In this document: in pieces, positions 12,621 through 54,376 of the stretch
Numbering within the stretch: the stretch's first letter is position 1
Layout: every line of letters begins with the position of its first letter
From: a virus
Direction: 5' to 3' (one strand)
Virus record (IMG/VR): IMGVR_UViG_3300050196_000225
Span: 1-64,000 of that record
DNA length: 64,000 nucleotides
Program-made: the position numbers and the translations under genes
Notes under the pieces: generated by a model
Told to the model about the DNA's origin: nothing
Database searches by the model: none
What the model saw: the letters and a program-made list of their open reading frames with translations, nothing else

Positions 12621-12944
12621 ATGAGCAAATCACGCCAAGATCAGGACCAGTCGGCCGAGTTTTACGCCAGCCGTGGCCAGTCCCGCTACATGATCATCAC
12701 CAAACTGGAAGTCAAGGATCGCCTGAAAGAGATCGGCAAGCGCTACGGCATCTCTCAAGGCGACGTGGTCGACGTCCTGGTCGAAAACACGAACTTCGAC
12801 AGCCTGGTCGAGCAGATGGAAGACAAGCGCTCGGTGCGCCTTGCCATCGATGGGCGCGTCAAGACCGACCTGGCCAAGCGCATCAGTCTGCTGAGCCCTG
12901 AGAAGCAAGCCGAGATCGAGCGCATCCTGACAGAGGCAGCGTGA
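12621..12944 (+). CDS. hypothetical protein
   Basis: 107-aa ORF. GTGA overlap with the next gene. Confidence 0.6.
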   Translation: MSKSRQDQDQSAEFYASRGQSRYMIITKLEVKDRLKEIGKRYGISQGDVVDVLVENTNFDSLVEQMEDKRSVRLAIDGRVKTDLAKRISLLSPEKQAEIERILTEAA

Positions 12945-13144
12945 CCTTCGCCGACACCCATTCGGAATACCTGTGGCTGCGGGCGCAGCTCGGGTATGAG
13001 CCAGGCGGCATCGTCAAGGAGGTATGGGACGGGTGTGACGCTGAAAGCCAGCAAAACATGCTTGAGCAGTTCAGGGCACCGCTGCGCGCAATCCAGGCCA
13101 GGGAAGCCGTCTATGCCAAGATTCGTCAAGGAGACGCCTGGTGA
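12941..13144 (+). CDS. hypothetical protein (ends ...QGDAW)
   Basis: 67 aa with GTG starts and GTGA overlaps on both sides. Confidence 0.5.
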   Translation: MTFADTHSEYLWLRAQLGYEPGGIVKEVWDGCDAESQQNMLEQFRAPLRAIQAREAVYAKIRQGDAW

Positions 13145-13539
13145 AGGTCTGTGTCACGGGCGGGCGCGAGTATGGGGACAGGGCACACGTCTACCGCATT
13201 CTCGACGCCGTGCATCGGAAGAGGCCCATCACGCTACTGCTGGAAGGTGGCGCCGCAGGCGCCGACCGACTGGCGCGGGATTGGGCGATTTCCAGAGGTG
13301 TGGATTTCCAGACCTTCGAGGCGAATTGGGCGCTCTATCTTGGTCGCGCTGGCAACATCAGGAACTCGCGCATGCTGCGGGAGGGTCGCCCTGCTTTGGT
13401 AGTCGCGTTCCCTGGTGGCTCTGGCACTCGGGACATGACGGTCAAGACGGTTCGAGCTGGCATTCCAATGCTTCCAGCTTCCAAGTTCCAACTTCCATCC
13501 TCCAGCCTGGCTGACGCTGGGCGTCTTTCCAATGTATAA
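13141..13539 (+). CDS. SLOG-fold protein (DUF2493/YspA-like)
   Basis: VCVTGGREYGD...LLLEGGAAGADRLARDWA...FEANW...AGNIRNSRML...VVAFPGGSGTRDM matches the DUF2493 pattern. Confidence 0.7.
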   Translation: MKVCVTGGREYGDRAHVYRILDAVHRKRPITLLLEGGAAGADRLARDWAISRGVDFQTFEANWALYLGRAGNIRNSRMLREGRPALVVAFPGGSGTRDMTVKTVRAGIPMLPASKFQLPSSSLADAGRLSNV

Positions 13540-13707
13540 GGACCACGTTTCCAAGCTCGGGGCCTGGCTGTCTAAGGACGGTATTGGAGAGGGTCGGAAC
13601 GAGGAAGGGAGGGCCTCCAGCCCTGTCGCGTTTTTCTAAGACTTCGCTATAACGCAAAGCATTCAACCCGCAGCATGTGATGCAATGCGGGTATGTAATG
13701 CTGTCTG

Positions 13708-14013
13708 TTATTCGAATCGCGTCAAGCGCTCAGTGATCAAGCGCACAAAGTGCGCTTGTGCTGACACTGCGTCATTAAGATAGATCGTTTGTTCGACTAT
13801 CACGCTTGCGTGCGATTCTTGACTTGCGCAGCTAAGATTGTAGCAACCCTCAGCGTCATATACGGTGACCGTGTTGTAATGGTTACTATCAGCGCAAGCG
13901 TTGTATGACACCATTTCAAAATGATGTTCTGCGATAACTGCAAAGCGACTGTCTTGCAATTCGCTGCAAGTGTCAAGCAAAGCGAGAATTTCGGGTGTTG
14001 ATTCTATAATCAT
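13708..14013 (-). CDS. hypothetical protein (AT-rich island)
   Basis: 101-aa ORF in a visibly AT-richer segment, with the promoter/leader element directly upstream. Confidence 0.55.
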   Translation of the reverse strand: MIIESTPEILALLDTCSELQDSRFAVIAEHHFEMVSYNACADSNHYNTVTVYDAEGCYNLSCASQESHASVIVEQTIYLNDAVSAQAHFVRLITERLTRFE

Positions 14014-14030
14014 TTTGCTTACCTTATTTA

Positions 14031-14051
14031 ATTCAATGATTGAATTATAGC
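14031..14051 (-). promoter_or_regulatory. -10 plus conserved-leader element
   Basis: The minus strand reads gcTATAATTCAATCATTGAAT. It belongs to the same family as the 12 copies at 15.9-29.8 kb. Confidence 0.45.
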
Positions 14052-14087
14052 ATTAATTCACGGGTGACTTAGCACCCGTGAATTAAT
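14052..14087. repeat. 15-bp perfect inverted repeat embedding the palindrome motif
   Basis: attaattcacgggtg / cacccgtgaattaat with loop acttag. It contains TCAcgggTGACTTA and lies between two genes. Confidence 0.7.
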
Positions 14088-14091
14088 ATTT

Positions 14092-14739
14092 TTATTCTGC
14101 TACGCTTTCTTGTTCTTCTTGTTCGTTTTCTTCTTGCGCTGCAAGTGCTGCAGCTGCTACAGCATCAGCAAATAAGGGTGCAAGAATCTTCTTCCCCTTT
14201 TCGTTCAAGGGAATAGAATCCCCCTTATGTGCTTTTTGAATGTCTGCGAGTTGCAAAACGCGCAACATTTCACGCGTGCTACTACGCTGCGTGCTAGCTG
14301 TAGATTCTGCTTTGCGCATGCGATACTTGATGACTTGCGCAGTGTCTTGTTCGGTGTATTCAATACCATTTGACAAGCAAACAAGGGCAGACTTAGCTAA
14401 CATGGTCCCGTCGTTATGAAAAGCGTTAGCGATGATAGTAACGCTATATTCATCAACCTTACTGAGCATGCGAACACCGATCGCATAAAGCATGTTGACA
14501 ATCTTAACGTTCGCTTTCACTGCGATGAAGTTTTCACCCTTGTTCAATGGGTTTTGCATTTTGCAGTATGCATCGATACAATCGAGCGAAAATCTCATAA
14601 GGGCTTTTTTGATCGCGACTTCACCTGACGCAAGGTGCTTCAATGTGATTTCGTTATCGCGTGAAGGTTGCGCAGCTTGACGCGCAGTCACTGCAGCGAA
14701 AATATTCTTGTATGCGGTCTGCGATTGTTCAACGTTCAT
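14092..14739 (-). CDS. hypothetical protein with an acidic tail (AT-rich island)
   Basis: 215 aa, ending AQEENEQEEQESVAE. The segment STASTQRSSTREMLRVLQLADI resembles GTCNAQAGQMMAMLPMLKIAV in the protein at 25308-26309. Confidence 0.6.
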   Translation of the reverse strand: MNVEQSQTAYKNIFAAVTARQAAQPSRDNEITLKHLASGEVAIKKALMRFSLDCIDAYCKMQNPLNKGENFIAVKANVKIVNMLYAIGVRMLSKVDEYSVTIIANAFHNDGTMLAKSALVCLSNGIEYTEQDTAQVIKYRMRKAESTASTQRSSTREMLRVLQLADIQKAHKGDSIPLNEKGKKILAPLFADAVAAAALAAQEENEQEEQESVAE

Positions 14740-14917
14740 GATGTGCTTTCAAGGTTAGCGGGTTAGGTTTGATGCGTTTTCAGCGCATGAGTTAATGTAA
14801 CCTGTTTTTGTGTGTTGTGCGCATTGTGTGCAAAAAAAAGATGATTATTTTTAGTTGACGTTGCAGAACAACACATTGTAAAGATGACACACGATGAAAA
14901 AGATTTGTGTTAGTCGC

Positions 14918-14931
14918 GCGCATGCATGCGC
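14918..14931. repeat. 14-bp perfect palindrome GCGCATGCATGCGC
   Basis: Read directly from the sequence, in the 490-bp non-coding stretch 14740-15228. Confidence 0.7.
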
Positions 14932-14952
14932 ATCGCGCGTTTTAGTCACCAT

Positions 14953-15031
14953 ACGCAATGCGTTAAACGATGAGCTTTAAGCGCAATGCTTTAAGCGCAA
15001 TGCGTTGAGCACAACGCGTTGAGCGCAGAAC
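14953..15031. repeat. Iteron-like array of 14-bp tandem units
   Basis: tttaagcgcaatgc x2 (14976-15003), then gttgagcacaacgc and gttgagcgcagaac (15004-15031). Related units precede it (acgcaatgc gttaaacgatgagc). Confidence 0.6.
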
Positions 15032-15228
15032 GTGATGCGTTCAGGCGCAGCGAGACAGAAATCCCGCCCAGATAGGGGATGGCGATGGCGCCAGGATGGC
15101 CAAGGAACGCCTCAGCGCCCTTCAGGAGCGTCAAGGATCGATTTGCCTGTCAGGGCCAAGGACCGGTAAAACTTCCAAAAACAGGTCCGCCTGAGAGCTG
15201 TCAACTCTCCAGGTCAGACCCTTTCGGA

Positions 15229-15426
15229 TTACCAGTCCGCCTGGTTGCTCAGTCGTTGGCTGCGCCCTGCACGCATGGTTTGGCACTCGATGAGGTGTTC
15301 CAGCTCAGCTTGCTCCTGCATCGCCATGTAGTCCCGATGGCGCTCCAGCTCGATTTGTTGGCGCACAGTCATAGGCTGACCAAAGTCGGCGTCGATTGGC
15401 GTGGCGTGGATGGGTGCGAGGTTCAT
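15229..15426 (-). CDS. hypothetical protein (ends ...NQADW)
   Basis: 65-aa ORF on the minus strand. Confidence 0.45.
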   Translation of the reverse strand: MNLAPIHATPIDADFGQPMTVRQQIELERHRDYMAMQEQAELEHLIECQTMRAGRSQRLSNQADW

Positions 15427-15464
15427 GGCGTTGCTCTTGAAGTTGGCGAGGGTTGGAGGTGGGC

Positions 15465-15617
15465 TTACTTGGCGAAGCGCTCGGTGGCGAGAATCTGGAC
15501 TGCGTCTTCAATGGGCACATGGCGGTTACGCAGGTAGGCGGCCGCCCGTTGCGTTCCGAGCGTCTTCTTGATGGCGATGGCGCGGGGAACAAGGGCGGTG
15601 ATTTGCAGTGCGGTCAT
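15465..15617 (-). CDS. hypothetical small protein (50 aa)
   Basis: Hand-translated as MTALQITALVPRAIAIKKTLGTQRAAAYLRNRHVPIEDAVQILATERFAK. Possibly HTH-like. Confidence 0.35.
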   Translation of the reverse strand: MTALQITALVPRAIAIKKTLGTQRAAAYLRNRHVPIEDAVQILATERFAK

Positions 15618-15668
15618 GGTTGGCTTTCAGCTGAGTTGAGCGAGGTTTGGGTGAGGTGGATGACATTC

Positions 15669-15680
15669 GTCACCCGTGAC
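15669..15680. promoter_or_regulatory. Palindrome-family copy GTCAcccgTGAC
   Basis: The minus strand reads tatcaGTCAcgggTGACgaatgtc, about 50 nt upstream of ATG 15617. Confidence 0.4.
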
Positions 15681-15707
15681 TGATACCCGTAGGCATCAGA
15701 AAGGAGG

Positions 15708-15899
15708 TCAGACGGGCGCTTGGCAGTAGGTGACGGTGTCGACCGGACTGTCAGAGACAACCTTGAAGATCAGGCCCGTTGTGGGATCGTGGTAGATGTC
15801 AAACGGTGATGCGCTCGATTCTTTCCCGCTACCGATGAACTCACACCCGTGTGAGGACTTCAGGTCGGTGCTGTAGATGGGCTGCATGGTGGTCTTCAT
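15708..15899 (-). CDS. hypothetical small protein (63 aa)
   Basis: Start set at ATG 15899 (MKTTMQPIY...), directly after the conserved leader. The track ORF is longer, reaching 16118. Confidence 0.5.
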   Translation of the reverse strand: MKTTMQPIYSTDLKSSHGCEFIGSGKESSASPFDIYHDPTTGLIFKVVSDSPVDTVTYCQAPV

Positions 15900-15917
15900 G
15901 GTTGTTTCTCGGTTCGC

Positions 15918-15936
15918 TGTTGTCGATGAATGTATT
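15918..15936 (-). promoter_or_regulatory. -10 plus conserved-leader element
   Basis: The minus strand reads cacAATACATTCATCGACAACAgcgaaccgagaaacaaccATG. Confidence 0.5.
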
Positions 15937-16082
15937 GTGCGCACCCGACACAGGCATTGGTTTGGAGCTTGAGCGAGATCCTGGCCTGTTGAAGATTGCA
16001 GGCCGAGCCTTAAGCCTGTGTGCCTGGCCTGCGTGCCTGGCCTGGTCGTTGGCCTGCCTAGGCCCAGCCTGAGAGGGTGAGA

Positions 16083-16100
16083 GAAGGGCCTGCGCCCTTC
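16083..16100 (-). terminator. Stem-loop after ORF 16115-16453 (weak terminator)
   Basis: GAAGGGC-N4-GCCCTTC. No clear U-tract. Confidence 0.3.
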
Positions 16101-16114
16101 CCTTTCCCGTTCTC

Positions 16115-16453
16115 TCACTGAGGTGTGAGCATGAGCATCGGGTAGGACGGGTTTTCGTCGGTGAACAGGTCACCGTAAAACTCAGCGTCATTCACGCTCA
16201 GGACAGAGTCGAGCACCTGCATGGACTTTGCGATCAGGTCGAAAGCGCCCGAACACTGATACAGGTCATGCGCTTGAACCTCGGTGAGCGCTTCGAGCTT
16301 GAACGATGCACCTTCAATCGGTTCAAACGCGCGATCAAGCGTCAAGCGGAAACGGTCGATACCGTCATCAGATGCGATCAAAAACACGTCTTTGTGTTCG
16401 GTTGCGCAGATACCTTGATCGCAAGCGCTGAAGAGGTGCAGAAAATAGTTCAT
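16115..16453 (-). CDS. hypothetical protein (112 aa)
   Basis: Start set at ATG 16453 (MNYFLHLFSACDQG...), after the conserved leader. Confidence 0.55.
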   Translation of the reverse strand: MNYFLHLFSACDQGICATEHKDVFLIASDDGIDRFRLTLDRAFEPIEGASFKLEALTEVQAHDLYQCSGAFDLIAKSMQVLDSVLSVNDAEFYGDLFTDENPSYPMLMLTPQ

Positions 16454-16473
16454 GGTTTTCTCGGTTCGTTGTC

Positions 16474-16493
16474 GTGTTGTTGATGTATGTATT
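16474..16493 (-). promoter_or_regulatory. -10 plus conserved-leader element
   Basis: The minus strand reads cacAATACATACATCAACAACAcgacaacgaaccgagaaaaccATG. Confidence 0.5.
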
Positions 16494-16613
16494 GTGCATG
16501 CCCGACACAGGAGGTGGGTTGGCGTTTGAAAGCGTTCCTGGCCTGTGGTTTGGTGCTTGGCCAGGCCTGACGCTCCATAAGCCTGCATGTGCCTGGTTGG
16601 GCCTAGGAATATG

Positions 16614-16637
16614 CATACAAAAGGGCTTGCGCCCTTT
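16614..16637 (-). terminator. Stem-loop terminator after ORF 16641-17069
   Basis: The minus strand reads AAAGGGC-gcaa-GCCCTTT-TGTAT. Confidence 0.5.
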
Positions 16638-16640
16638 GGT

Positions 16641-17069
16641 TTACGAGATCTGCACCTCTGCACCATTTTGCGTGAAATACAGTTCATCGGTGTCGCTGAA
16701 GTAGAGCGCTTGACCGTGTTTCTCGTCACAATGCAGTTCGTCGCTGCCCGCGTGCTCGTTGATGTATTCGAGCATCAACACCGCTGCATCGTCTTGAATG
16801 AAACGCGGTGCGTAGTGCAGCGACAGCGCGCGTGCAAGCTCGGGCATGTTGTCGAGATTGCTTTTTTCGCTGATCACTTCGCCCGTGATCATATCGACAG
16901 TGCGCGAGAAAATCGCATGGTCGTTGCTGAATACGTCTTCGGTGTTGGTTTGGTCAACCACAACATAAGTCGCGTGAACACGATTGTTCACGCACTTTGC
17001 GTAAAGGGTGTGAAACATTTGCACCTTGTTGAATTGTGCGCATGCGGTAGTAATTTCGTTTTGGTTCAT
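16641..17069 (-). CDS. hypothetical protein
   Basis: 142-aa ORF with a leader element upstream and a hairpin downstream. Confidence 0.6.
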   Translation of the reverse strand: MNQNEITTACAQFNKVQMFHTLYAKCVNNRVHATYVVVDQTNTEDVFSNDHAIFSRTVDMITGEVISEKSNLDNMPELARALSLHYAPRFIQDDAAVLMLEYINEHAGSDELHCDEKHGQALYFSDTDELYFTQNGAEVQIS

Positions 17070-17086
17070 GATGAAAACGTAATATG

Positions 17087-17108
17087 TTTTGTTTCGGTGT
17101 ATGTATTG
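17087..17108 (-). promoter_or_regulatory. -10 plus conserved-leader element
   Basis: The minus strand reads caacAATACATACACCGAAACAAAAcatattacgttttcatcATG. Confidence 0.45.
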
Positions 17109-17172
17109 TTGTGCGCGATCACAGGAAATGTGCAGGAAAGCGCATCAGCGCCTGACCGAGATCCAACTATGT

Positions 17173-17212
17173 TCAAGGCACGCCAAGGAACGTCAAGGAA
17201 CGCCAAGGAACG
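17173..17212. repeat. 10-bp tandem repeat x4 (CAAGGMACGY)
   Basis: tcaaggcacg ccaaggaacg tcaaggaacg ccaaggaacg. Related single copies (ccaaggaacgcc, gtcaaggatcg, gccaaggaccgg) occur at about 15095-15175. Confidence 0.65.
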
Positions 17213-17611
17213 CCACACCGACTGCAGGTCACGATTTCAGGCAAAAGCCAAGTCAAGTTTGGATTGTCAAGCGGTGGACAAAACGTCCAACAAGTCCCAA
17301 GGACAGCGCAAAAGCCTCGCGCGCACGCAGGATCTTTTGAAAAGAAGTTCGCCTGAAAGACCAGGTTTAACTTGAGGTGTATTGGCCCCTCCGATGAGGA
17401 AACCTAGTGGAAGAACAAGCCCCCCTTACCCCCCGTAGCACTTTCCTACAGGAGACAAGGAGGACAAGTTCCGCCAGGTTTCACACATCGGAGGCTATCC
17501 GCGTATGACACACCAACAGGCAAGAACAAGCCCCTAGAAGAAGAAGCGACTCCTGAGAGAACCTAGCCATTTGGCACAGTGATCAGGGAAGCAATTTGCG
17601 ATCACTGTAGC

Positions 17612-17625
17612 TCAGGAGTGACTGA
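17612..17625. promoter_or_regulatory. Palindrome-family copy TCAggagTGACTGA
   Basis: It lies immediately 3' of ORF 17630-17998, at the head of a 560-bp ORF-free stretch. The adjacent hairpin is cagtgatc-N15-gatcactg. Confidence 0.4.
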
Positions 17626-17629
17626 TCTG

Positions 17630-17998
17630 TCAAGAGGCAAACCTGTGCTTGTTGCGCTCGAACCAGTCGCAGGACTCCCATGCCCAGTCTTCACTGCTGG
17701 AAGTCCCACCGCCCTGGTAGTCATCCGAGTTCAGCTTCACCCAGCGGAACTGCCCTGCATACTCTTTGCCCCAGACTGCGCCCATGTCTTCGATGTAGTA
17801 GCCCATGCTCATCAGCTCGGCAATGCGCTCAGAACCGAGCACAGAAAATCCATGAGCCCTGATCAGGGACTTCGCTTCACGCACTGTTTTGGCTTCAAGG
17901 GCTGCGAGCGTGCGGCCGGACTCGATACTGTGGACCGTGACCTCGACCCAGTTGGAGGCGTGAAGAATCACGGTGGTGATGTGAGGAGCGGTTTGCAT
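17630..17998 (-). CDS. hypothetical protein
   Basis: 122-aa ORF with the leader element upstream. Confidence 0.6.
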   Translation of the reverse strand: MQTAPHITTVILHASNWVEVTVHSIESGRTLAALEAKTVREAKSLIRAHGFSVLGSERIAELMSMGYYIEDMGAVWGKEYAGQFRWVKLNSDDYQGGGTSSSEDWAWESCDWFERNKHRFAS

Positions 17999-18013
17999 GT
18001 TCGTCTTCGGTTG

Positions 18014-18035
18014 CTTGTTGCGATGAATGAATTTT
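18014..18035 (-). promoter_or_regulatory. -10 plus conserved-leader element
   Basis: The minus strand reads gaggtcAAAATTCATTCATCGCAACAAGcaaccgaagacgaacATG. Confidence 0.5.
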
Positions 18036-18430
18036 GACCTCTATACTCAGGCTATGGTCACCACCCGCCAGGCACGCCACACGCCTATCCTTGCCGCCTA
18101 TCCTGCTCGCGCCTTGGCAGCCAATGCCTGTAACGCTCGCAGGCCTGCAGGATCGCAACTTCTAGGCCTGGCCAGGATAGCCTGTCAGCCTGTAGGCCAG
18201 GTAACGCCTCGGCAAGCCTCGGCAGCGCCAGGCGCAAAAATTGGCCGTCACTGGATCAGGACAGCCTGGGCGGTGGGTGGCCAGGTGGAAGGGGTAAGAG
18301 AGGGTGGAAAGTTGGCGACGATTGAAGGGTGGAATACCACCCACCCACTTTTTGCTTAGACGTAGGCAACTCGTCACCCACCCACTTTCACCTTACGCCT
18401 ACACCTAGTCTTCCTTCTCTTCTACAAACC

Positions 18431-18603: not shown

Positions 18604-18798
18604 TCACGGTGCTTTTGGTTCGGTTGCGACGTGTTGATTGTCTTGTGCTGACGTTGGCTGTGGGTTGGCGCTTTTCTCTTGTTCCTTTGTTCTGACGCTG
18701 TAGATCGCCTGTGTTGTTCCTTTGGAGAACTCGTAGATTGATCCGTTTTCCATTGTCATGGTCAGGATGTCGATGTTGACTTTCATTGGCGTCACCAT
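18604..18798 (-). CDS. hypothetical small protein
   Basis: 64-aa ORF. ATG 18786 is an alternative start. It overlaps or abuts the upstream gene's stop. Confidence 0.45.
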   Translation of the reverse strand: MVTPMKVNIDILTMTMENGSIYEFSKGTTQAIYSVRTKEQEKSANPQPTSAQDNQHVATEPKAP

Positions 18799-19331
18799 GC
18801 TTGGTCCGCTTGTGTTTTGGGTTGATCCTGGTTCTGAGGTTTGCCTGGCAGCTCAGCCTTGTTGATTTTTCTCCTGTAGGTTGAATTTGGTGGCACTTCC
18901 GATCCAGCGCTGGCGGTTTTCCTCCAATTGCCCGATCTCATCAATTTCTCGTCTTCTGGTTCGAGGATGTCGTCTGTGTCCAGACAGATGTAGTCTGGCA
19001 TTGGATCGAATGGGCCGATCTTTCTCCTGTAAAGAATGTCGTCGCGATGGAGCCTGGCTTCCTCCACCCTTTCGCCTTGTGCTTTGCTGTCCTCCCAGCC
19101 GAAGTCGCATCGAAACTGGTCGCCTGGCCTGATGACGTCGTCGGGCTTCAGGAACCGGTATTGCTCTTTTCGGATGACTGACACGTCTCTTGCGTCGAGG
19201 CCGACGGACAGCTCGACCTCACGCCACTCTTTTGAATCTGCGAAGATTTTGTCGCCTGGCTTGATGATCTCGTGTGCTGCCAGCTTTCTGTAGCCTACTG
19301 GCACGGTTATTACGCTTGTTTCGTATGCCAT
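18792..19331 (-). CDS. repeat-module protein with a PKT..D.AW tail
   Basis: 179 aa with three units of about 50 aa: GYRKLAAHEIIKPGDKIF..W, YRFLKPDDVIRPGDQF..W, and DYICLDTDDILEPEDEKL..W. Ends DQPKTQADQAW. Confidence 0.6.
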   Translation of the reverse strand: MAYETSVITVPVGYRKLAAHEIIKPGDKIFADSKEWREVELSVGLDARDVSVIRKEQYRFLKPDDVIRPGDQFRCDFGWEDSKAQGERVEEARLHRDDILYRRKIGPFDPMPDYICLDTDDILEPEDEKLMRSGNWRKTASAGSEVPPNSTYRRKINKAELPGKPQNQDQPKTQADQAW

Positions 19332-19385
19332 TGTTTTGCTCTCGTGAAACTTTCGAAATTGGGTTCGCCTGGCAGCTCAGGCTTC

Positions 19386-19907
19386 TTACCAGGCGTCGTC
19401 GGTGATGGTTTTGGGTTTGTCGGGGCTGAAAGTTGGCCCGCTCTTTCTGGCGAATATGTAGTTGGCGGTGGCTTTGCCGCCTTTCGGAGAGTGCTGACGG
19501 CCGTCCTTGCTTATCGCAAAGTCAGTGACGAAAACTTGCCCACCTTCGTTGATCCACTCATAGTTATTTGGCGGCGCCGGCTCGATCATTGGGTTGGCTT
19601 CTTTGCCGGTTGTCATGCCGAGCGCTGCGAGAATTGGCTTGTCGGTCCATTCGTCGTTCTTCCAAAGAAGCATGCCTTCTTTGACTTGAGCTGGATGATT
19701 GACTGGTCTGTAGCCTGGCGGTGCGCCATCTGGGTTGGGCCTGGCTGTGAGCTTAGCGTTGCTGTCCAGCAGTGATTTGCCCAGTTCCGAAGGCACAGAC
19801 TCACGCCATTGCCCTACATCAGGCAGCCATAACAGGTCCAGCGCCTTCACATAACCGTTGTGGACAATGCGGTAGCCGGGCGGAAGTGTTTTGTGCATCT
19901 TGATCAC
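19386..19907 (-). CDS. repeat-module protein with a PKT..D.AW tail
   Basis: 173 aa with repeats PPGYRIVHNGYV..W..W, PPGYRPVNHPAQVKEGMLLW..W and PPNNYEWINEGG. Ends DKPKTITDDAW. Confidence 0.6.
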   Translation of the reverse strand: MIKMHKTLPPGYRIVHNGYVKALDLLWLPDVGQWRESVPSELGKSLLDSNAKLTARPNPDGAPPGYRPVNHPAQVKEGMLLWKNDEWTDKPILAALGMTTGKEANPMIEPAPPNNYEWINEGGQVFVTDFAISKDGRQHSPKGGKATANYIFARKSGPTFSPDKPKTITDDAW

Positions 19908-20338
19908 CAGGCTTCTCCTTCATCAACGATGGTTTTGGGTTTGTCGGCGCGCTTGCGCTCGATCTCGATCATGACCGGGCACGCCACGCACTTCCACTGG
20001 TAACCGCGGCCGCAGGACAGGTCGGTCGTTTCCGGGCCGCAGCCTTCCTCGACCATGCGTTTCCAGTGACGGCCATCGCGGTTGGTGGGTGGCAAGTGTT
20101 TGGCCTTCCACCAGTTTTCGCCAAGCACGTCGGGATCGACACCCCGGTCAGGGTCAGGCTGGGCCTGCCTGATGATGCCCGCGAAGCTGGAGACTCCCAG
20201 ATTCAGGAAGGTCGATCGGTTGTCGATGTCGCTCCAAGTTTTTTGCGCCTCGTTCCAGCGTCTGTCGCCATGCTTGGGAAAGCCTTCAATGACCTTCACC
20301 CAGCCTGTTGGTATAGCTCCATGTGTGTCTTGTGTCAT
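19904..20338 (-). CDS. protein with a PKT..D.AW tail
   Basis: 144 aa with N-terminal IPTGWVKVIEGFPKHGDRRW..W. Ends DKPKTIVDEGEAW. GTGA overlap with the next gene. Confidence 0.6.
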   Translation of the reverse strand: MTQDTHGAIPTGWVKVIEGFPKHGDRRWNEAQKTWSDIDNRSTFLNLGVSSFAGIIRQAQPDPDRGVDPDVLGENWWKAKHLPPTNRDGRHWKRMVEEGCGPETTDLSCGRGYQWKCVACPVMIEIERKRADKPKTIVDEGEAW

Positions 20339-24873: not shown

Positions 24874-25218
24874 TTACCAGACTTCACCAGTCTGTGTCGC
24901 GGGTCTGTGAGGCGCGACCGGCCTGGTTGGTTTGACCGGCGCAATCAGGCGCTCGACCGGCTCGACATTGAGCAATCCAAGCCCGACCTTCCACTTGTGT
25001 CCTGGCACGAGCGAGTCGCCTGTCTCGCTGCAGGAGGCGGTCTTCTGGTTGATCTTGTCGATGTGAACTCGCCTGACGCCGCCTTCGTTGTCTCTGAAGG
25101 TGGCATATCGCCCGCGCATCACGCGCGTGTCCAGGCGCTGATCAAGGAGCTTGTCAACTTCCGCCTTGATCTTCTTCAAGGCGTCTGTCGATAGCAGGGC
25201 AAATTTTGAGAGGTCCAT
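24874..25218 (-). CDS. hypothetical protein (tail ...RPATQTGEVW)
   Basis: 114 aa from ATG 25218 (MDLSKFALLSTDALKKIKAEVDKLL...). The track ORF starts further upstream. Confidence 0.5.
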   Translation of the reverse strand: MDLSKFALLSTDALKKIKAEVDKLLDQRLDTRVMRGRYATFRDNEGGVRRVHIDKINQKTASCSETGDSLVPGHKWKVGLGLLNVEPVERLIAPVKPTRPVAPHRPATQTGEVW

Positions 25219-25307: not shown

Positions 25308-26309
25308 TTACAGACCGAGGTCCGCTTTAACCTTCATCGCGATCAGGCTGTCTGCGTTCAGAACCAGGCGGCCCTTCTCGCCCGTGCTGACTGCGATCTT
25401 GAGCATCGGCAACATTGCCATCATCTGACCGGCTTGCGCGTTGCAGGTGCCCTTGGAGTAAGGCTTGCTCAGCAGCTCGGCGTGCAAGTTGCCCTTCTCG
25501 CCACTCGTGATGCAACCATCGCGCAGGAGGACTTTGAACGTGCGCTTCATGACCTCGTTCAAGGAACCGCCTGACTTCATCCAAGTGAAGAGCATGACCA
25601 CCTTCTCGGCGACCTTCTTCTGGGTGGCCGTCGCGCTGCCCGTGCCAGGACGGGTGTTAAGCAGCGCGAGCAGGTCAGCTTGCTTGGCGCGCAGGGCGTC
25701 AGGTTCCAGCTCAATGTCGGCCGTTTCCAGCAGCAGCATTTCGTCACGCTTGTCGCCCAGACGGGCGGTCAGGACGTCGCTGGCCTTGCCCGTGACGTAG
25801 GTCACACGGTGGACCTTCGGTTCTTTGGCCTTCGCGGGCTTTTCGGCCGCTTCGGTTTCGGCGGGCTGCTCGGCAGCGGGCTCAGTCACGCCGCCTGCAG
25901 CTTCGATATCTGCAAGGGCAGACGCGAGGGCAGCGTCGTCCAAGTCAGCGCCTTCGAGCCCTTCGAGCGAGACCTCGCCAACCAGGTCTTCGCTGGCGGC
26001 CAGGACCGGTGCGTCAGCGGGCACAGCAGCTTCAAGGACCGGCTCACTCAGGCCTTCCAGGTCGCTCAGGTCGGCGTCGCTCAGGTCGGCGTCGCTCAGG
26101 TCGGCGTCGCTCAGGTCGATCTCGTCAGCGACAGGCTTGTCGTCCATGTTGACCAGGTCTTCGAGCAGGCCGCCCAGTAGCGCTTCGCTGTTGGCGCTCA
26201 GGTCGATCTCGGCAGTGGTTTGCATGTTCATGGTCAGGCTTTCGGTTTGTGCAGTCTTCTTGGACTTGCGGTTGCGGGTGGGCTTGTTGGCGGTTGCGGT
26301 CATGGTCAA
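25308..26309 (-). CDS. highly acidic repeat protein
   Basis: 333 aa. The N-terminal half is Asp/Glu/Ala/Leu-rich with (DLSDA)x3-4. The C-terminal roughly 170 aa form a distinct domain. Confidence 0.65.
   Translation of the reverse strand: MTMTATANKPTRNRKSKKTAQTESLTMNMQTTAEIDLSANSEALLGGLLEDLVNMDDKPVADEIDLSDADLSDADLSDADLSDLEGLSEPVLEAAVPADAPVLAASEDLVGEVSLEGLEGADLDDAALASALADIEAAGGVTEPAAEQPAETEAAEKPAKAKEPKVHRVTYVTGKASDVLTARLGDKRDEMLLLETADIELEPDALRAKQADLLALLNTRPGTGSATATQKKVAEKVVMLFTWMKSGGSLNEVMKRTFKVLLRDGCITSGEKGNLHAELLSKPYSKGTCNAQAGQMMAMLPMLKIAVSTGEKGRLVLNADSLIAMKVKADLGL
26061..26118. repeat. 15-bp in-frame tandem repeat (about 3.9 copies)
   Basis: gtcgctcaggtcggc repeated. It encodes DLSDA units inside ORF 25308-26309. 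Confidence 0.85.
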
Positions 26310-27060: not shown

Positions 27061-27143
27061 CAATGTCACATATTGGATATAGAGTGGATATACTCACCCG
27101 CCCGTAAAAGTTCCAATATTGAGTTCGCCTGACGGCTCAGGCT

Positions 27144-27608
27144 TTACCAGGCCCCGATCCCGCCATCGTCCACGTCGCCTTTAAGGTTTGCTACGGAGCT
27201 GGTCGGCAAGTCAGAGCTTGGAGGTGGCGGCGGTGGAGGTGGAGGCGCCAGCGTGTTGCCAACTTCCTCGATGTTGCCTTCTTCATCCATCGTCGAGTCT
27301 GTCCACTTGAGGATGAAGTCCTCGTAGAAGGAGGTGGCCATCTTCTCGTCAGGAAAGAATCGGCCGCTGAACGGATCTGGCACAGGCTTGCCCTGGTCGT
27401 TGTAGTTGGACAGCTCCAGGGCGAAGACTTTGTAGGTGCTGCGGAACTGCTTGTCAGCGTCAGGCACCTCGCCCTTCCACACGATGCGAATCAGGACTTT
27501 GCCATTGTCAAACTGACGCACGATCTGGTAGGAGGCGTCTTTCAGCTTGGCCAGGTAGGCATCGCGAGACATTGGCAGACCTTCACGGTCGAAGTATTTG
27601 GTCGTCAT
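27144..27608 (-). CDS. hypothetical protein (poly-Pro linker, ends ...DDGGIGAW)
   Basis: 154-aa ORF with PPPPPPPPP near the C-terminus. Confidence 0.6.
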   Translation of the reverse strand: MTTKYFDREGLPMSRDAYLAKLKDASYQIVRQFDNGKVLIRIVWKGEVPDADKQFRSTYKVFALELSNYNDQGKPVPDPFSGRFFPDEKMATSFYEDFILKWTDSTMDEEGNIEEVGNTLAPPPPPPPPPSSDLPTSSVANLKGDVDDGGIGAW

Positions 27609-29817: not shown

Positions 29818-30453
29818 TCACCAGCGCCTGATCTGCAGCTGTGTCTCGACCTCTTCAACCAGCGTCAAGTCGCCAATGGGGTCTGTCATGACCAGCTGAC
29901 CATTGGCCCGCTCCATGAAGTTCTTCATGTGCAGGTCCAGGAAGTTGCCACCGTTGTAGCTGCAGTATCGGGCCAGGTCTTTGAAGGCGTTGCGCACGCT
30001 GCCTGGCAGGTCTTTGCAGGCGACCATCTTGCGCGCCTCTTCCTCTGCCAGAAACTCTTCGGGAACGTCCGCGTAGGTCAGCCTGCGATCTTTGTGCCGG
30101 ATGATGATGGACCTGGCCAGCTTACATGCCTGGCTGCCGGCCCTGAGCTTGCTCAGACGCTCGACCTCATACAAGTAGATTGGCCAGCGCCTTCCGAGCA
30201 CGCTGATCTCGCCAATGTCCTGATGGTCATCATGCACGCGAGTGAAATGGCGATGCGTCACACGGGTGACCTTGTCGTTGGCCATCCAGTAGCTCGGGCC
30301 ATCCACAGTCAACTTCAAGGCGGTGTTCGGGCGCGTGCCCTCAAAGACGGCCGAGAAGTTGCCTCGACCAAGCAGCTTTTTGCCCTGGAGAAGTGGGTGA
30401 CGAAGTGCCAAACGAGCACCTGGCTCGTCAAAGCGAAATGCTTTGGCGGACAT
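29818..30453 (-). CDS. protein-kinase-like (ePK/APH-fold) phosphotransferase
   Basis: 211 aa from ATG 30453 (GAAAGG RBS). Gly-loop LGRGNFSAVF, Lys in TALKL, catalytic-loop-like LDLHMKNFM and DFG-like VMTDPIG. Confidence 0.5.
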   Translation of the reverse strand: MSAKAFRFDEPGARLALRHPLLQGKKLLGRGNFSAVFEGTRPNTALKLTVDGPSYWMANDKVTRVTHRHFTRVHDDHQDIGEISVLGRRWPIYLYEVERLSKLRAGSQACKLARSIIIRHKDRRLTYADVPEEFLAEEEARKMVACKDLPGSVRNAFKDLARYCSYNGGNFLDLHMKNFMERANGQLVMTDPIGDLTLVEEVETQLQIRRW

Positions 30454-44419: not shown

Positions 44420-45421
44420 TCACCACTCCAGGGCGCCACCAACGGCGTAGGAGGAAACCTTGCCTTCGAAGAAGTTGGTTTCAACGCCATTGACGGCGCT
44501 GAACTTCTTGACCCAGGGCACCGGGTTTTTCACGCCTGGGTATGGCGGGAACATGCCGACCAGGGCTGCACGCTCGTTCGCCAGCGTTCGGATATAGTCG
44601 TCAACGATCTGGTCTGTGGCGCCCAGCACGCCGCCCTTGATGATGTAGCGGCCCCAGGCCGACTCCAAGTCAACAGCGTCACGGAACAGCTTGCCGGCCT
44701 CTTCGTAGAACTCGGCGTCGAAGACTTCCGGGTGCTCGACCTTGAGCGTCTCCAGCATGGCCACGAACAGCTTCAGGTGCGTGCCCTCTTCATCGCGCTG
44801 GATCAGGCGGATCATGTCGCACGAGCCCAGCATCTTGCCGTTGCGGGCCAGCAGGTAGAAGGCCAGGAAGCCACTGAAGAAGTAGATGCCTTCGAGCAGG
44901 ATGTTGGACACCACCGCCAGGGCAAACGCGCGTGGCGAGAACTCGGTGCCCAGCGCTGCGCTTTGGCGCAAGATGTGCTCGTTCTTGGCCGCCAGCAGAC
45001 CGTCTCGCTCGAAGGTCATGTAGACGCTCATCGGGTCCAGGCTGATCGCCTCGATCATCGAACTGTAGGCATCGACGTGCAGGGCCTCTTCGAAGGCCTG
45101 GCGCGCGATCAGCATCGACACTTCAGGCGAAGTGATGTGGTGCCCGATGTTTTGCGTCAGGTTGTTGAACTGGATGCCGTCCAGGTTCGACAAGAAGGCC
45201 AGCGCCTTGTCATACATGAAACGCTCGGCGTCGGTGAGCTTTTCCTTGTAGCAAGCCACGTCGCGAGACAGGTCCACTTCTTGAGCGGTCCAGTTGTTTT
45301 GCAACATGATCTGCCAGATCTCGCGCGCCCACTTGTGCTTCATGGGGCTGATCGCCATCAGGTTGTCTTTGGGGCCGAGAATGAGGCGACGCTCGTTCAC
45401 TCGGCTGCTGTAATCGGTCAT
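44420..45421 (-). CDS. nrdB: ribonucleotide reductase class I beta subunit
   Basis: Di-iron ligand motifs FEEALHVDAY and RDEEGTHL, plus LLEGIYFFSGF. 333 aa. Confidence 0.9.
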   Translation of the reverse strand: MTDYSSRVNERRLILGPKDNLMAISPMKHKWAREIWQIMLQNNWTAQEVDLSRDVACYKEKLTDAERFMYDKALAFLSNLDGIQFNNLTQNIGHHITSPEVSMLIARQAFEEALHVDAYSSMIEAISLDPMSVYMTFERDGLLAAKNEHILRQSAALGTEFSPRAFALAVVSNILLEGIYFFSGFLAFYLLARNGKMLGSCDMIRLIQRDEEGTHLKLFVAMLETLKVEHPEVFDAEFYEEAGKLFRDAVDLESAWGRYIIKGGVLGATDQIVDDYIRTLANERAALVGMFPPYPGVKNPVPWVKKFSAVNGVETNFFEGKVSSYAVGGALEW

Positions 45422-47792: not shown

Positions 47793-47812
47793 TAGCTCAG
47801 TGGTGACTGAAG
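47793..47812 (-). promoter_or_regulatory. Palindrome-family element
   Basis: The minus strand reads CTTCAGTCAccacTGAGCTAGACTcc, 40 nt upstream of the nrdA ATG. Confidence 0.5.
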
Positions 47813-47828
47813 TCAATATAAGAGCCAA

Positions 47829-48113
47829 TCACCACTGGTCTGTCCGTGTCTTGGGCTTGTCGCTGTCACTTGACTTAGACGAAATTGAGGCTATGGTGAT
47901 GGTGGGTTTTGGCATCAACGGCGTCAAGATGGCTTTGTAATTGCCAGCCGCTAAGTGCTCCGTCAGCTCCTGACTTAGATCATCAGCCTCAATTTCCATC
48001 GTGACGAATCTCCTACCCACCGCAGGCACTGGATACATGGTCCCAAGCACACGAATTGGCACACGGTCCTCGTGGATCTCAAAGCTCTTAATTCGAACCT
48101 CAGTAATCACCAT
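47829..48113 (-). CDS. hypothetical protein with a PKT..D.W tail
   Basis: 94 aa, ending DKPKTRTDQW. Confidence 0.55.
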   Translation of the reverse strand: MVITEVRIKSFEIHEDRVPIRVLGTMYPVPAVGRRFVTMEIEADDLSQELTEHLAAGNYKAILTPLMPKPTITIASISSKSSDSDKPKTRTDQW

Positions 48114-48397
48114 GCGTCCTTATCGACGGTTTTTGGAATGTCGACGTTCGTCTTTTTAGTTGCCATCGCCGCGTAGGCATTGGCATTGGCGTCTACGATA
48201 TGGCTTTCATCGAAAACGATACTGTCAAATGCCTTGCCTCGAATCTTCCCGTCAGACGCCGGTATAAATGGCAGATCTGTGAGAATTGAGCTTTTTTCAG
48301 TGAGCATGTCGATCATTTCCTGCGTCAAGGTCACTTTGCCAATGCGACGGCCACCAGTTGTCACTGTGCCCCTGAGTCGCTTTTTGTCATCTGTCAT
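48107..48397 (-). CDS. hypothetical protein with a PKT..D.AW tail
   Basis: 96 aa from ATG 48397, ending DIPKTVDKDAW. Confidence 0.55.
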   Translation of the reverse strand: MTDDKKRLRGTVTTGGRRIGKVTLTQEMIDMLTEKSSILTDLPFIPASDGKIRGKAFDSIVFDESHIVDANANAYAAMATKKTNVDIPKTVDKDAW

Positions 48398-49038: not shown

Positions 49039-49656
49039 TTACCAACTGCCATAACCGAGCGCCTGATACTCGGGGCGAGCCAGGCGTTCGTCGTTCTCTT
49101 TCTTGCTCTGAACTTCAACATGCGCTGCGGCGCGTGCCGCAAGAATGGGTCTGATGCCTGAGCTGGCCATGAACCCGTCAAACTCGCCAAGAAGAGCGCT
49201 AGCCTCTTGCAGACCCATCTCCACGCTCTTGTAGTCGGACGCAGCTACAGGCTCAAAGACAAAGACAGGCTGGTCTTTCTTGCCGATGTAGCAGCTGACC
49301 AGGGCAAACTCTTCGCCGCCGATATGTGGCCGCTTGGCGTATTGACCTGTTTTCTTGACGATGGTCAGCGACTTTGGCTCCATCAGCTCAAACCGACCTC
49401 GGCTTGTCAGGATGCAGTGGTTGAGCGCCTCGACAAAATCGTCGCGCGTCCAGTCGCCTGGTGGAGGGAAAGAGGTCTTAAACTTGGCGTCAACCGACTT
49501 TTTCATGTTCATCGTCAAATAACCGCTCGCCAAAGCGGCAGCTTTTCGCTCTGCTGCCCTGTGCGACTTCCAGGTCGATGGCTCATCAGAATGAAAGCCT
49601 GGCTCCAGAACATCTTTCATGGTGGGGCCAGATTTTGTGTATTCAGAAATGGCCAT
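49039..49656 (-). CDS. hypothetical protein (ends ...GYGSW)
   Basis: About 205 aa from ATG 49656. ATG 49620 is an alternative start. Confidence 0.5.
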   Translation of the reverse strand: MAISEYTKSGPTMKDVLEPGFHSDEPSTWKSHRAAERKAAALASGYLTMNMKKSVDAKFKTSFPPPGDWTRDDFVEALNHCILTSRGRFELMEPKSLTIVKKTGQYAKRPHIGGEEFALVSCYIGKKDQPVFVFEPVAASDYKSVEMGLQEASALLGEFDGFMASSGIRPILAARAAAHVEVQSKKENDERLARPEYQALGYGSW

Positions 49657-53672: not shown

Positions 53673-54062
53673 CCGCAACTTCATCGCCTTCGCAATACTG
53701 CCGCTGCTGATCGATGTGTTCACGAGGAACTTGTCTCGCCCGAGTCTACGTTGCGGCGTAGTGCCTTCGGGGTGTGGCTCGCTTGGCGGGCTCCAAAAGT
53801 CCTGCAGCCTCGTAATATAGTAGTGGACGTTTTTGCCAACACGGTGGGCAACCCCTATTGCAGTAGCGCCTCTTCTTTCAGCTTCCCGCAGTGTTGCGAT
53901 GTCCAAACACCAGGCGTTCTTGCGAAAGAACAGCGATCTGGACTTTTCGCCCGAGCGCCACGCCAGGTAGAGGCACCTGCCGTCATCAAAGTGGTAGAAC
54001 ATGCCATATTTCTTGCCGTTGACGGAGTGAGGAACGCGCGTGATGCTCACCACGATCCCCAC
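53670..54062 (-). CDS. hypothetical protein
   Basis: 130-aa ORF. Confidence 0.55.
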   Translation of the reverse strand: MGIVVSITRVPHSVNGKKYGMFYHFDDGRCLYLAWRSGEKSRSLFFRKNAWCLDIATLREAERRGATAIGVAHRVGKNVHYYITRLQDFWSPPSEPHPEGTTPQRRLGRDKFLVNTSISSGSIAKAMKLR

Positions 54063-54376
54063 TCCCCGACATAAGCCAACATGCGGCGCGCGTCAACCTC
54101 GTCAATTACGGCGAGTTTGGCAACATTGCCCTTGATGACTTCTTCCATATTAACTTTTTCGACATTCCAGGACTTGAACTTCTTTTGAAGCGTCCTGCTG
54201 TTTGCAATGGCGTTGTCCAGAAAGTCATGGACATCTTTTTTGAACATGCCTGACTGGCCGGCATCTTTTCGAGATTGGCGCAGCCAGCAGCCGTAAGATG
54301 GGTCTGCGCCAAGAACAGACCTCACCACTTTCATTTTGTGCTGCCCGAACGGGAAGGTATCGTCTAATCCAATCAT
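54047..54376 (-). CDS. DUF3820-like protein (ends ...EWGSW)
   Basis: 109 aa. N-terminal FPFGQHKMKVVRSVLGADPSYGCWL resembles the FPFGKHKG...Y..W motif. Confidence 0.45.
   Translation of the reverse strand: MIGLDDTFPFGQHKMKVVRSVLGADPSYGCWLRQSRKDAGQSGMFKKDVHDFLDNAIANSRTLQKKFKSWNVEKVNMEEVIKGNVAKLAVIDEVDARRMLAYVGEWGSW

Follow-up and report, generated by a model that had tools for sequence, protein, structure and literature searches.

Small proteins with unrelated sequences, encoded at separate places in a phage genome, are not expected to finish in the same peptide. In the stretch of viral DNA analysed here (the window, 64,000 nt, positions 1 to 64,000 of IMG/VR record IMGVR_UViG_3300050196_000225) an initial annotation pointed out that several small proteins end in a shared PKT-containing tail with a terminal Trp. 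Two questions arise: whether the shared ending is real, and what it may be for. With respect to the first, the observation holds. The six listed open reading frames are all present on the minus strand and end as described. Independent JGI gene calls on the source contig give the same genes, with lengths of 144, 170/173, 179, 96, 94, 109 and 205 aa. Features are listed in Table 1.

Table 1. Genes with aromatic C-terminal tails, and other features of the window referred to in the text.
Position	Strand	Gene or product	C-terminal sequence	Remarks
18792-19331	-	Gene A, 179 aa	DQPKTQADQAW (18795-18827), class 1	Three copies of the ~45-aa repeat module; last codons GCA TGG TGA contain the ATG of the next gene (18604-18798)
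19386-19907	-	Gene B, 173 aa from the GTG at 19907 (JGI: 170 aa from the ATG at 19898)	DKPKTITDDAW (19389-19421), class 1	Two clear repeat modules; tail region of low confidence (possibly disordered) in the AlphaFold2 model
19904-20338	-	Gene C, 144 aa	DKPKTIVDEGEAW (19907-19945), class 1	One repeat module; inserted E-G-E (GAAGGAGAA, 19913-19921) is the ribosome-binding site for gene B
47829-48113	-	Gene D, 94 aa	DKPKTRTDQW (47832-47861), class 1	Orphan body; in the variable slot directly upstream of nrdA
48107-48397	-	Gene E, 96 aa	DIPKTVDKDAW (48110-48142), class 1	Orphan body; codons GAT AAG GAC GCA TGG TGA carry the AAGGA ribosome-binding site and the ATG of gene D
24874-25218	-	Gene F, 114 aa, PHROG 10017	RPATQTGEVW, degenerate class-1-like	The one homologue found, in a relative, also ends in W (...DYGQIAW)
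49039-49656	-	Core gene, 205 aa (post-SbcC protein)	YQALGYGSW (49042-49068), class 2	Start overlaps the end of sbcC; homologues in this group (16 in the BLAST cluster, 13 aligned) and the Rhizobium-phage homologues keep a tail (FGSW, YGSW or NPNFGRF)
54047-54376	-	Core gene, 109 aa	YVGEWGSW (54050-54073), class 2	Between recA and sbcD; orthologues end W-G-[SAMV]-[WFY]
12941-13144	+	67 aa	QGDAW	Downstream of the helicase; homologues in relatives end ...YGVAW and ...GEDHW; TGGTGA end overlaps the GTG start of the downstream YAcAr gene
15229-15426	-	65 aa	NQADW, loose W ending	No homologue found
27144-27608	-	154 aa, PHROG 5241	DDGGIGAW	Followed by the same hairpin element as gene B
29818-30453	-	211 aa	IRRW	Weak PHROG match to the T7 gp0.7-type protein kinase; not listed in the initial annotation
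44420-45421	-	NrdB	YAVGGALEW	Terminal Trp is a subfamily feature, not part of the portable tail
56979-57800		gp32-like SSB	DLGTGTD	Lacks the tail
25308-26303		Conserved unknown protein		
57925-58860		Conserved unknown protein		
62429-63085		Conserved unknown protein		

A gene call based on codon usage gives 104 genes in the window, of which 13 end in W; these are the 12 of the initial annotation plus the 211-aa gene. Trp makes up 1.43% of residues, which gives a binomial P of 4e-9, and within-protein shuffles yield a mean of 1.66 W endings with a maximum of 8. Genes A to E end in D-x-P-K-T-x(2-6)-W. The pattern [DE].P.T.{1,7}W, anchored at the C-terminus, matches these 5 C-termini and no internal site in 18,458 residues, while shuffles give a mean of 0.005.

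The initial annotation further held that the A-B-C trio and the D-E pair look unrelated in their bodies, and that the trio carries an internal repeat. Both statements are borne out. Trio and pair bodies show no significant similarity to each other. A profile built from six copies of the repeat finds 148 proteins at E<=1e-3 among 1.84 billion cluster representatives, with up to 16 repeats per protein. However, two points require correction. The terminal Trp of NrdB, which had been counted with the looser endings, is an ordinary feature of its RNR subfamily: the second-closest solved NrdB, 7ail (E = 7.5e-58), also ends ...ELKW and aligns to the last residue. In addition, the length variation in the tail of C is the Shine-Dalgarno sequence of the downstream gene B. 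Part of the nt detail of the tails serves translational coupling, a feature that had been missed.

Conservation is in the peptide and not in the DNA. Pro is encoded by CCC/CCG/CCA/CCT, Thr by ACC/ACA/ACG, Asp by GAC/GAT and Ala by four codons, and every conserved tail position uses several synonymous codons. All three stop codons occur (TGA 11, TAA 8, TAG 4). Translational coupling accounts for some codon choices and for the E-G-E insert, and the last codons of B pair into a hairpin (z = -2.8), but neither accounts for the motif. There are no Rfam families and no tRNAs in the window.

The tail is not confined to this one phage. Uncultured relatives with 57-79% DnaE identity carry the same tail, generalised to D-x-P-x-T-x(1-3)-[DE]-[ATS]-W (class 1). 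Together with the five in the window this makes 24 distinct proteins, which fall into at least 18 unrelated BLAST body clusters. Bodies A to E have no homologue in the relatives' loci. In the relatives there are 13 C-terminal against 12 internal matches in 332,903 residues, an enrichment of about 240-fold per position. W at -1 in 24/24 follows from the selection rule, and P at -8/-9 and D at -10/-11 were partly required by the selection pattern, but A/T/S at -2 in 19/24 and D/E at -3 in 20/24 were not forced. A scan of 2.9 million viral contigs in IMG/VR with a DNA pattern for DxPxTxxDAW followed by a stop found real copies only in this group; the six real hits all lie on contigs of 56-62% GC, five of them contigs already retrieved as relatives of this phage. 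Of the named phages, the nearest share only about 43% DnaE identity, and megablast of the 17-22 kb region and tblastn of protein B against GenBank phages found nothing.

The looser W endings mostly belong to a second defined tail, Y-x(3-6)-[FWY]-G-x-[WFY] (class 2), which sits on two window proteins. That these endings form a second tail, and that the phenomenon extends across a whole phage group, had also not been recognised. There are 36 class-2 tails, and the class-2 pattern gives 32 terminal against 5 internal matches. The second tail recurs in lineage-specific forms in distant relatives, GGWA in Pseudomonas phage nickie and NFGRF in Rhizobium phages. On one homologous protein, the post-SbcC protein, the ending is YGSW here and NPNFGRF in Rhizobium phages (body homology E = 1e-10). 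The protein in the same position after SbcC ends DFGGWA in nickie and IWGTW in E. coli phage Cyrano, although body homology was not detectable there. Other proteins share the local form, 13/87 genes in nickie and 8/125 in RHph_N1_15. In the 13-sequence alignment of the post-SbcC family, the tail is among the best-conserved segments while the preceding linker varies.

Of importance, homologues of protein B carry the second tail where B has the PKT tail. Three of these, P0056, P0073 and P0101 (34-39% identity, P0101 in a syntenic relative), end AAWGTW, NPAWGSW and YTEWGSF. Thus the two tails are interchangeable.

Searches for known families and folds were uninformative. Pfam and PHROGs searches of the tail-bearing proteins gave no informative family, nor did ten tail proteins from nickie and the Rhizobium phage. 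Word-indexed protein searches with B and with the 205-aa protein each returned only the query itself, whereas a profile search recovered the Rhizobium-phage orthologues. AlphaFold2 models of the 205-aa protein (pLDDT 73) and of B (pLDDT 71) had no Foldseek match in the PDB. In the B model, residues 155-167, just before the end, have pLDDT below 50, but the composition of the 20 residues before the tail does not differ significantly from that of the body. PDB sequence searches with the three conserved unknown proteins of Table 1, considered as candidate partners, found nothing. All tail genes lie in the early/DNA-metabolism region, and none of the 23 further genes of the same phage (structural and plasmid-maintenance) ends in W. 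Full-text literature searches found no description of these tails.

As to function, the initial annotation proposed docking to a shared hub, a degradation tag or a packaging tag, and this interpretation is supported in part. The conditions that it had named as able to overturn the idea were examined, and none applies: enrichment survives shuffling, the tail is present in relatives and in the orthologues that could be found, and synonymous codons vary freely. Of the three options, docking fits best, since different bodies carry the tail, an orthologous body swaps one tail type for the other, and each phage lineage has its own form shared by many of its proteins. In this view the PKT...W ending is a short linear motif at the extreme C-terminus, a presumably flexible peptide in which the terminal aromatic residue and neighbouring acidic or small residues would serve as an anchor. 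It is one of two interchangeable tail types in this group of ~110 kb DnaE-encoding phages, some of which are phage-plasmids, with both types on a few core proteins of the recombination/replication module and on many fast-turning-over small early proteins. The analysis itself establishes the enrichment, the conservation of the peptide, its portability across unrelated bodies, the tail swap on one orthologous body and the lineage-specific forms. That the tail binds a partner at all, and that the partner is a conserved phage protein of the DNA-metabolism module or a conserved host protein, is inference only; no partner was identified, and nothing directly distinguishes docking from a degradation signal or another tail-dependent process. 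The trio are paralogues, and therefore the five window tails are not five independent events. Within the group, the terminal residue of one family varies W/F/Y without matching changes in other tails of the same genome. Lineage-level co-variation is therefore clear only between distant groups, and it rests on four genomes. With these reservations, docking is held with moderate confidence, as somewhat more likely than not.

A broader reading is tentative but remains compatible with the evidence. A whole group of ~110 kb DnaE-encoding phages and phage-plasmids, infecting Beta-, Gamma- and Alphaproteobacteria, may use a C-terminal aromatic tail as an address label that sends a large share of the early proteome, including newly acquired orphan genes, to one partner in the phage replication/recombination machinery. 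That share is about 6-15% of the genes examined in three of the four phages sampled, but only one protein in Cyrano. Each lineage would have its own co-evolving form (PKT...W and FGSW here, GGWA in nickie, NFGRF in Rhizobium phages), and new accessory genes would become functional simply by acquiring the tail.

Most small early genes of large phages have no known function and no homologues. A shared tail would give the first experimental handle on a dozen such proteins per genome, could lead through the peptide to their common partner, and could be used to find further members by sequence. It would show how phages make new accessory genes useful, by attaching a short address label rather than evolving a new interface, and would provide a natural example of a motif and its receptor drifting together between lineages. 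Cultivable relatives exist, namely Pseudomonas phage nickie, the Rhizobium RHEph10-type phages and E. coli SSU5-like phage-plasmids.

Among the alternatives, a degradation tag is unlikely but not excluded. An aromatic C-terminus might mark early proteins for timed removal by a host or phage AAA+ protease. The tails are C-terminal, exposed and possibly disordered, they sit mostly on small early proteins, and many different bodies share one signal, as expected of a degradation signal. However, the window endings, [DE]-[ATS]-W or G-[SAT]-W, do not resemble the known ClpX C-terminal signals of the ssrA type (...LAA), although the nickie variants ending W-A or F-A come slightly closer. The tail forms differ strongly between phages of Pseudomonas, Rhizobium and Betaproteobacteria, although ClpX specificity is conserved among proteobacteria. 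Conserved recombination-module proteins also carry the tail, and no protease gene was seen in the 84 kb examined.

Less likely again is an aromatic tail with no specific partner, a general sticker or cap that might drive partitioning into a replication-factory condensate or onto the membrane, or stabilise the protein end. Class-2 tails are rich in aromatic residues and Gly (Y...FGSW), like sticker motifs, W, F and Y are interchangeable at the terminal position in one family, and the terminal Trp of McdB is a possible precedent for recruitment to a protein shell (PMC8359340). Against this, the class-1 tail has a defined 10-13 residue pattern with fixed spacing (D at -10/-11, P at -8/-9, T at -6/-7, D/E at -3), more than a sticker needs, and the class-2 matches are terminal in the proportion given above.

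A packaging tag, which would target proteins into the procapsid for delivery with the DNA into the next host, is doubtful but also not excluded. C-terminal peptides that bind HK97-fold shells or capsid proteins provide precedents. A paper on McdB states that McdB proteins have an invariant C-terminal Trp, speculated there to recruit them to the capsid-like carboxysome shell, and that many capsid-assembly proteins end in Trp (PMC8359340). However, the tail genes lie in the early/DNA-metabolism region and include recombination-module genes, not the structural module, none of the structural genes examined has the tail, and 10-15% of early genes would be a very large cargo set.

Mimicry of the RNR beta tail, which the initial annotation named as a precedent for docking, is disfavoured and appears improbable; in this reading the tails would compete with or copy the NrdB C-terminus to bind NrdA. 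NrdB of this phage also ends in Trp, D and E lie directly upstream of nrdA, most relatives keep 1-3 tail genes in that slot, and class-2 tails share with NrdB a Tyr 7-9 residues before the end. However, NrdB tails in this group keep Leu at -3 (LEW, LAW, LDW), where class-1 tails have D/E, with a small residue at -2. In Cyrano, NrdB has an E. coli-type tail (...SQFADL) while the post-SbcC protein ends IWGTW, and in RHph_N1_15 NrdB and glutaredoxin end DDDEF and EDDDF while the portable tail is NFGRF. Most tail genes are far from nrdAB.

The weakest reading, that the tails are remnants of one duplicated gene or by-products of overlapping ribosome-binding sites, start codons or hairpins, draws on the tandem paralogy of the trio, on the ending GCATGGTGA of A and E, which contains the next gene's ATG, on the ribosome-binding site in the tail of C and on the hairpin of B that recurs after gene 27144, but it is already largely refuted by the codon analysis, and only 5 of 13 W endings overlap a downstream start, orthologues replace W by F or Y with different codons, and the tails occur on at least 18 unrelated bodies and on homologues of a widespread repeat protein most of which lack any tail.

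Short C-terminal docking peptides are already known, and several systems invite comparison. The bacterial SSB tip D-D-D-I-P-F and the T7 gp2.5 and gp4 tails ending in Phe (for T7, PMC12339929) are flexible, acidic tails whose last aromatic residue is the anchor for protein docking in DNA metabolism. In those systems one protein carries the tail and many partners have pockets for it, whereas here many different proteins carry the tail. The sequence also differs, D-x-P-x-T...W with the Pro 8-9 residues from the end and no I-P-F. The tail-bearing proteins have no Pfam or PHROG SSB match, and the phage's own gp32-like SSB does not end in an aromatic residue. Sliding-clamp binding peptides, bacterial QL[SD]LF and the T4 gp43, gp33 and gp55 C-terminal tails that bind gp45, follow the logic proposed here, in which many unrelated client proteins share one short, often C-terminal, peptide that docks them onto a single partner. 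However, none of the 24 class-1 or 36 class-2 tails has the Q/L pattern, position -2 is small rather than hydrophobic, and no clamp gene was recognised in the 84 kb examined. Resemblances can also be drawn, as background only, to the ClpP-docking IGF loop, the proteasome HbYX motif, the colicin TolB box DGSGW, Argonaute GW hooks and the Nbs1 NFKxFxK motif.

The C-terminal tail of the class I RNR beta subunit docks beta onto alpha, and NrdB of this phage ends in Trp with a Tyr 9 residues upstream. However, only one tail protein is NrdB, the others have no family match, and the portable tails do not track the NrdB tail type across phages. Encapsulin C-terminal cargo peptides, T4 capsid-targeting sequences and the shared C-terminus of the 80alpha scaffold and CpmB are likewise portable terminal peptides that direct unrelated proteins to one structure, but their sequences differ from those found here and the tail genes are early/DNA-metabolism genes. 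Finally, McdB proteins of carboxysome positioning are highly divergent proteins united by a Trp within the last four residues, which is thought to mediate association with the cargo (PMC8359340), and the tails described here share this Trp. McdB pairs with a ParA-type McdA and has a charged N-terminus, whereas the tail genes are not next to the phage's ParA-like gene, which lies about 9 kb beyond the right-hand (64 kb) end of the window and more than 18 kb from the nearest tail gene, and they carry a longer defined motif.

The 112,005-bp contig, of which the window covers 64 kb, derives from a JGI metagenome, was recovered repeatedly in one sample series, and belongs to a phage that encodes DnaE. 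The genes identified in the window include a gp32-like SSB, RecA, SbcCD, a RuvC-like resolvase, NrdAB, ThyX, a sigma factor and a head module (terminase, major capsid protein), and tail genes follow just outside it. JGI's precomputed Pfam hits list a UDG-family domain on the 1150-aa DnaE in addition to the usual Pol III alpha domains. A ParA-like, two ParB-like and integrase-like genes suggest a phage-plasmid lifestyle. A nicotinamide phosphoribosyltransferase gene lies next to a gene for a fused NMN adenylyltransferase-like/NUDIX protein, an NAD+ salvage pair of the kind phages use to counter NAD+-depleting defences. One stretch of the window displays a lower G+C (0.50-0.54 against about 0.59), with sparse, weakly scoring small ORFs and several gaps of 200-500 nt. 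The nearest named phages are Rhizobium RHEph10/RHph_N1_15, Stenotrophomonas BUCTxx99 and Pseudomonas nickie, which share only 40-43% DnaE identity. IMG/VR holds about 40 uncultured relatives at 57-79% DnaE identity. Two relatives lie in Paraburkholderia and Betaproteobacteria metagenome-assembled genomes, which tentatively points to a betaproteobacterial host.

The initial annotation reported a shared tail ending in Trp on several small proteins, and this observation is confirmed. All the open reading frames it listed are present on the strand given there and end as described, and JGI's own gene calls agree. A codon-usage model trained on the long genes of the window gave 104 genes. Thirteen of these end in Trp, which makes up 1.43% of residues (binomial P = 4e-9); within-protein shuffles give a mean of 1.66 Trp endings and a maximum of 8. 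The pattern [DE].P.T.{1,7}W matches five C-termini, those of genes A, B and C (the trio) and of genes D and E, and no internal position in 18,458 residues, with a shuffle mean of 0.005. None of 23 further genes of the same phage, which are structural and plasmid-maintenance genes outside the window, ends in Trp.

Positions of features in the window and in one locus of a related phage (L103, Rhizobium phage RHph_N1_15); other L numbers denote loci
Position	Strand	Feature	Tail or context
18792-20338		genes A, B and C	~45-aa repeat bodies
49039-49656		class-2 protein	YQALGYGSW; start overlaps the end of sbcC
54047-54376		class-2 protein	YVGEWGSW; between recA and sbcD
19355-19395 and 27115-27150	minus	repeated element	directly after the stop codons of two genes ending GCC TGG TAA
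18839-18858		diverged copy of the element	inside the coding sequence of gene A
about 47795-47812		conserved palindrome	between gene D and nrdA; same position in relatives L050-L062
35674-37077 and 37257-38330		NAD+ salvage pair	
13500-18400		stretch of lower G+C	
58938-62390; L101		DnaE with UDG-family domain; ParA-, ParB- and integrase-like genes	
L103 4986-5951 and 7650-7898		NrdB and adjacent glutaredoxin	...DTSDDDEF and ...SSEDDDF

Some nucleotide detail of the tails does serve neighbouring genes. Genes A and E end GCA TGG TGA, which contains the ATG of the next gene. The extra E-G-E in the tail of C is GAAGGAGAA, a ribosome-binding site 7 nt upstream of the GTG start of B. The last codons of B pair with a downstream CCAGGCG in a hairpin (z = -2.8) that recurs after gene 27144. 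The repeated element is GCCTGAGCYGYCAGGCGAAC, and after gene B the hairpin it forms includes the Ala-Trp codons. However, these overlaps do not explain the motif. In 23 of the 24 class-1 tails from the window and its relatives (one could not be placed in register), every conserved residue uses several codons: Pro uses CCC 9, CCG 9, CCA 4 and CCT 1, Thr uses ACC, ACA and ACG, Asp uses GAC and GAT, and Ala uses four codons. All three stop codons occur. Only 5 of the 13 Trp endings overlap a downstream start, orthologues replace the terminal W with F or Y, and no Rfam family matches in the window.

Genes were called in 90 loci (1.38 Mb) anchored on DnaE, NrdA and the helicase of relatives. Of 1,512 distinct proteins, 81 end in Trp, i.e. 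5.4% against a Trp composition of 1.2%; shuffles give a mean of 21.5 and a maximum of 36. These endings fall into defined groups. Class 1 is the initially annotated tail in a generalised form, D-x-P-x-T-x(1-3)-[DE]-[ATS]-W, e.g. DTPKTMQEDAW, DRPQTAMDAW, DVPMTTDDAW and DKPKTLEKETW. With the five of the window there are 24 distinct class-1 proteins, in at least 18 BLAST body clusters. Bodies A-E have no homologue in the relatives' loci. One to three class-1 genes are situated in a variable slot directly upstream of nrdA in most relatives, and others follow the helicase. A conserved palindrome of the type AGTCA-N4-TGACT, followed by an AT-rich box, also lies upstream of nrdA in this phage and its relatives and may be an operator or promoter. 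An exact DNA-pattern scan of IMG/VR for DxPxTxxDAW-stop returned 12 places. Six were real tails in long open reading frames, five of them on contigs already retrieved as relatives of this phage and the sixth on a contig of similar GC content; the other six were one spurious 4-codon ORF. A further Trp ending is found on the CbbQ/MoxR-type AAA+ protein (CobS-like) of most relatives (loci L012, L014, L020, L021, L038, L046, L049 and L118), which ends ...LRGSxLAxKLW, whereas the orthologue in this phage ends ...ATRVFPT.

A second portable tail, class 2, is Y-x(3-6)-[FWY]-G-x-[WFY]-COOH. The window and its relatives carry 36 distinct class-2 proteins in 12 body clusters, and in the relatives the motif occurs 32 times at the C-terminus against 5 times internally. 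The two class-2 proteins of the window both belong to conserved families, and within each family the tail is among the best-conserved segments while the linker before it varies. The forms are lineage-specific, FGSW/WGAW in the group of this phage and its relatives. The post-SbcC protein (49039-49656 in the window) ends NPNFGRF in the Rhizobium phages, with body homology to the window protein at E = 1e-10. The protein in the same position ends DFGGWA in nickie and IWGTW in E. coli phage Cyrano, where body homology was not detectable. In nickie, 13 of 87 genes examined share the local form [hydrophobic]-G-x-[WF]-(A/S), written more closely as [FIM]GG[WF][AS]. In RHph_N1_15, 8 of 125 end [FY]-G-R-F, the form of the Rhizobium phages being N[FY]GRF. 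Cyrano has only the one example.

The trio's body is built from a ~45-aa repeat, P-x-G-Y-R-x-L..G-D..W, which in larger homologues ends ..YRRK. A profile of six copies found 148 proteins at E<=1e-3 among 1.84 billion representatives, with up to 16 repeats each. None of the ten top hits scanned matched a Pfam family above its cut-off and there is no PDB fold match; this is an undescribed repeat family. Most of these proteins show no aromatic ending. However, three clear homologues of B (34-39% identity), one of which lies in a syntenic relative, end AAWGTW, NPAWGSW and YTEWGSF, and a fourth small repeat-module protein ends NPGYGSW. Thus one orthologous body carries class 1 in this phage and class 2 elsewhere. 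In the alignment, P(-8)-x-T(-6)...A-W of B lines up with the part of the homologues' tails that precedes G-[ST]-W. Class 1 may thus be a shortened relative of class 2, although this is an inference.

Several lines point to a C-terminal docking peptide read by one shared, putative partner. The tail is strictly terminal, has a defined pattern 10-13 residues long, and ends in an aromatic residue, the proposed anchor, preceded by a small residue and in class 1 also an acidic one. It is present on unrelated bodies, the two tail types interchange on one body, and lineage-specific forms are shared by many proteins of one phage. The two core tail-bearing families flank the RecA-SbcCD-RuvC module, and the overlap of the post-SbcC gene with the end of sbcC suggests translational coupling. 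A conserved protein of that module, or a conserved host protein, is therefore considered the most likely partner. The enrichment, the conservation at the peptide level, the portability, the exchange of tails and the lineage forms are shown by the analysis, but binding itself and the choice of partner are inferred only. Fold and sequence searches of tail-bearing proteins and of three conserved unknown proteins gave no lead. The predicted model of B has a pLDDT below 50 for residues 155-167, where the chain may be flexible.

The interpretation in the initial annotation, which offered docking, a degradation tag or a packaging tag and cited the RNR beta tail as a precedent for docking, is partly supported, docking being the option that fits best. 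A degradation tag remains possible, but the strong differences in tail form between phages of different proteobacteria fit poorly with a conserved host protease, and core recombination proteins also carry the tail. A non-specific aromatic sticker does not explain the fixed upstream positions. A packaging tag is less likely, as the tail genes are early/DNA-metabolism genes and the structural proteins examined lack the tail. RNR alpha as the partner is disfavoured. The terminal Trp of NrdB is a subfamily trait (7ail ends ELKW), NrdB keeps Leu at -3 where class-1 tails have D/E, and the portable tails do not follow the NrdB tail type in Cyrano or RHph_N1_15. In RHph_N1_15, NrdB and the adjacent glutaredoxin, two RNR partners, share nearly the same acidic, Phe-terminated tail. 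Pure paralogy or a DNA signal is largely refuted by the codon and body analyses.

Full-text literature searches found no description of these tails. Shared C-terminal docking motifs are already known, and what appears to be new here is these tails themselves, whose scope is unusually wide, up to about 15% of the genes examined in one relative. The logic proposed for the tails operates in clamp-binding peptides and, in reverse, in SSB tips. The closest precedent found is the invariant C-terminal Trp of McdB (PMC8359340).
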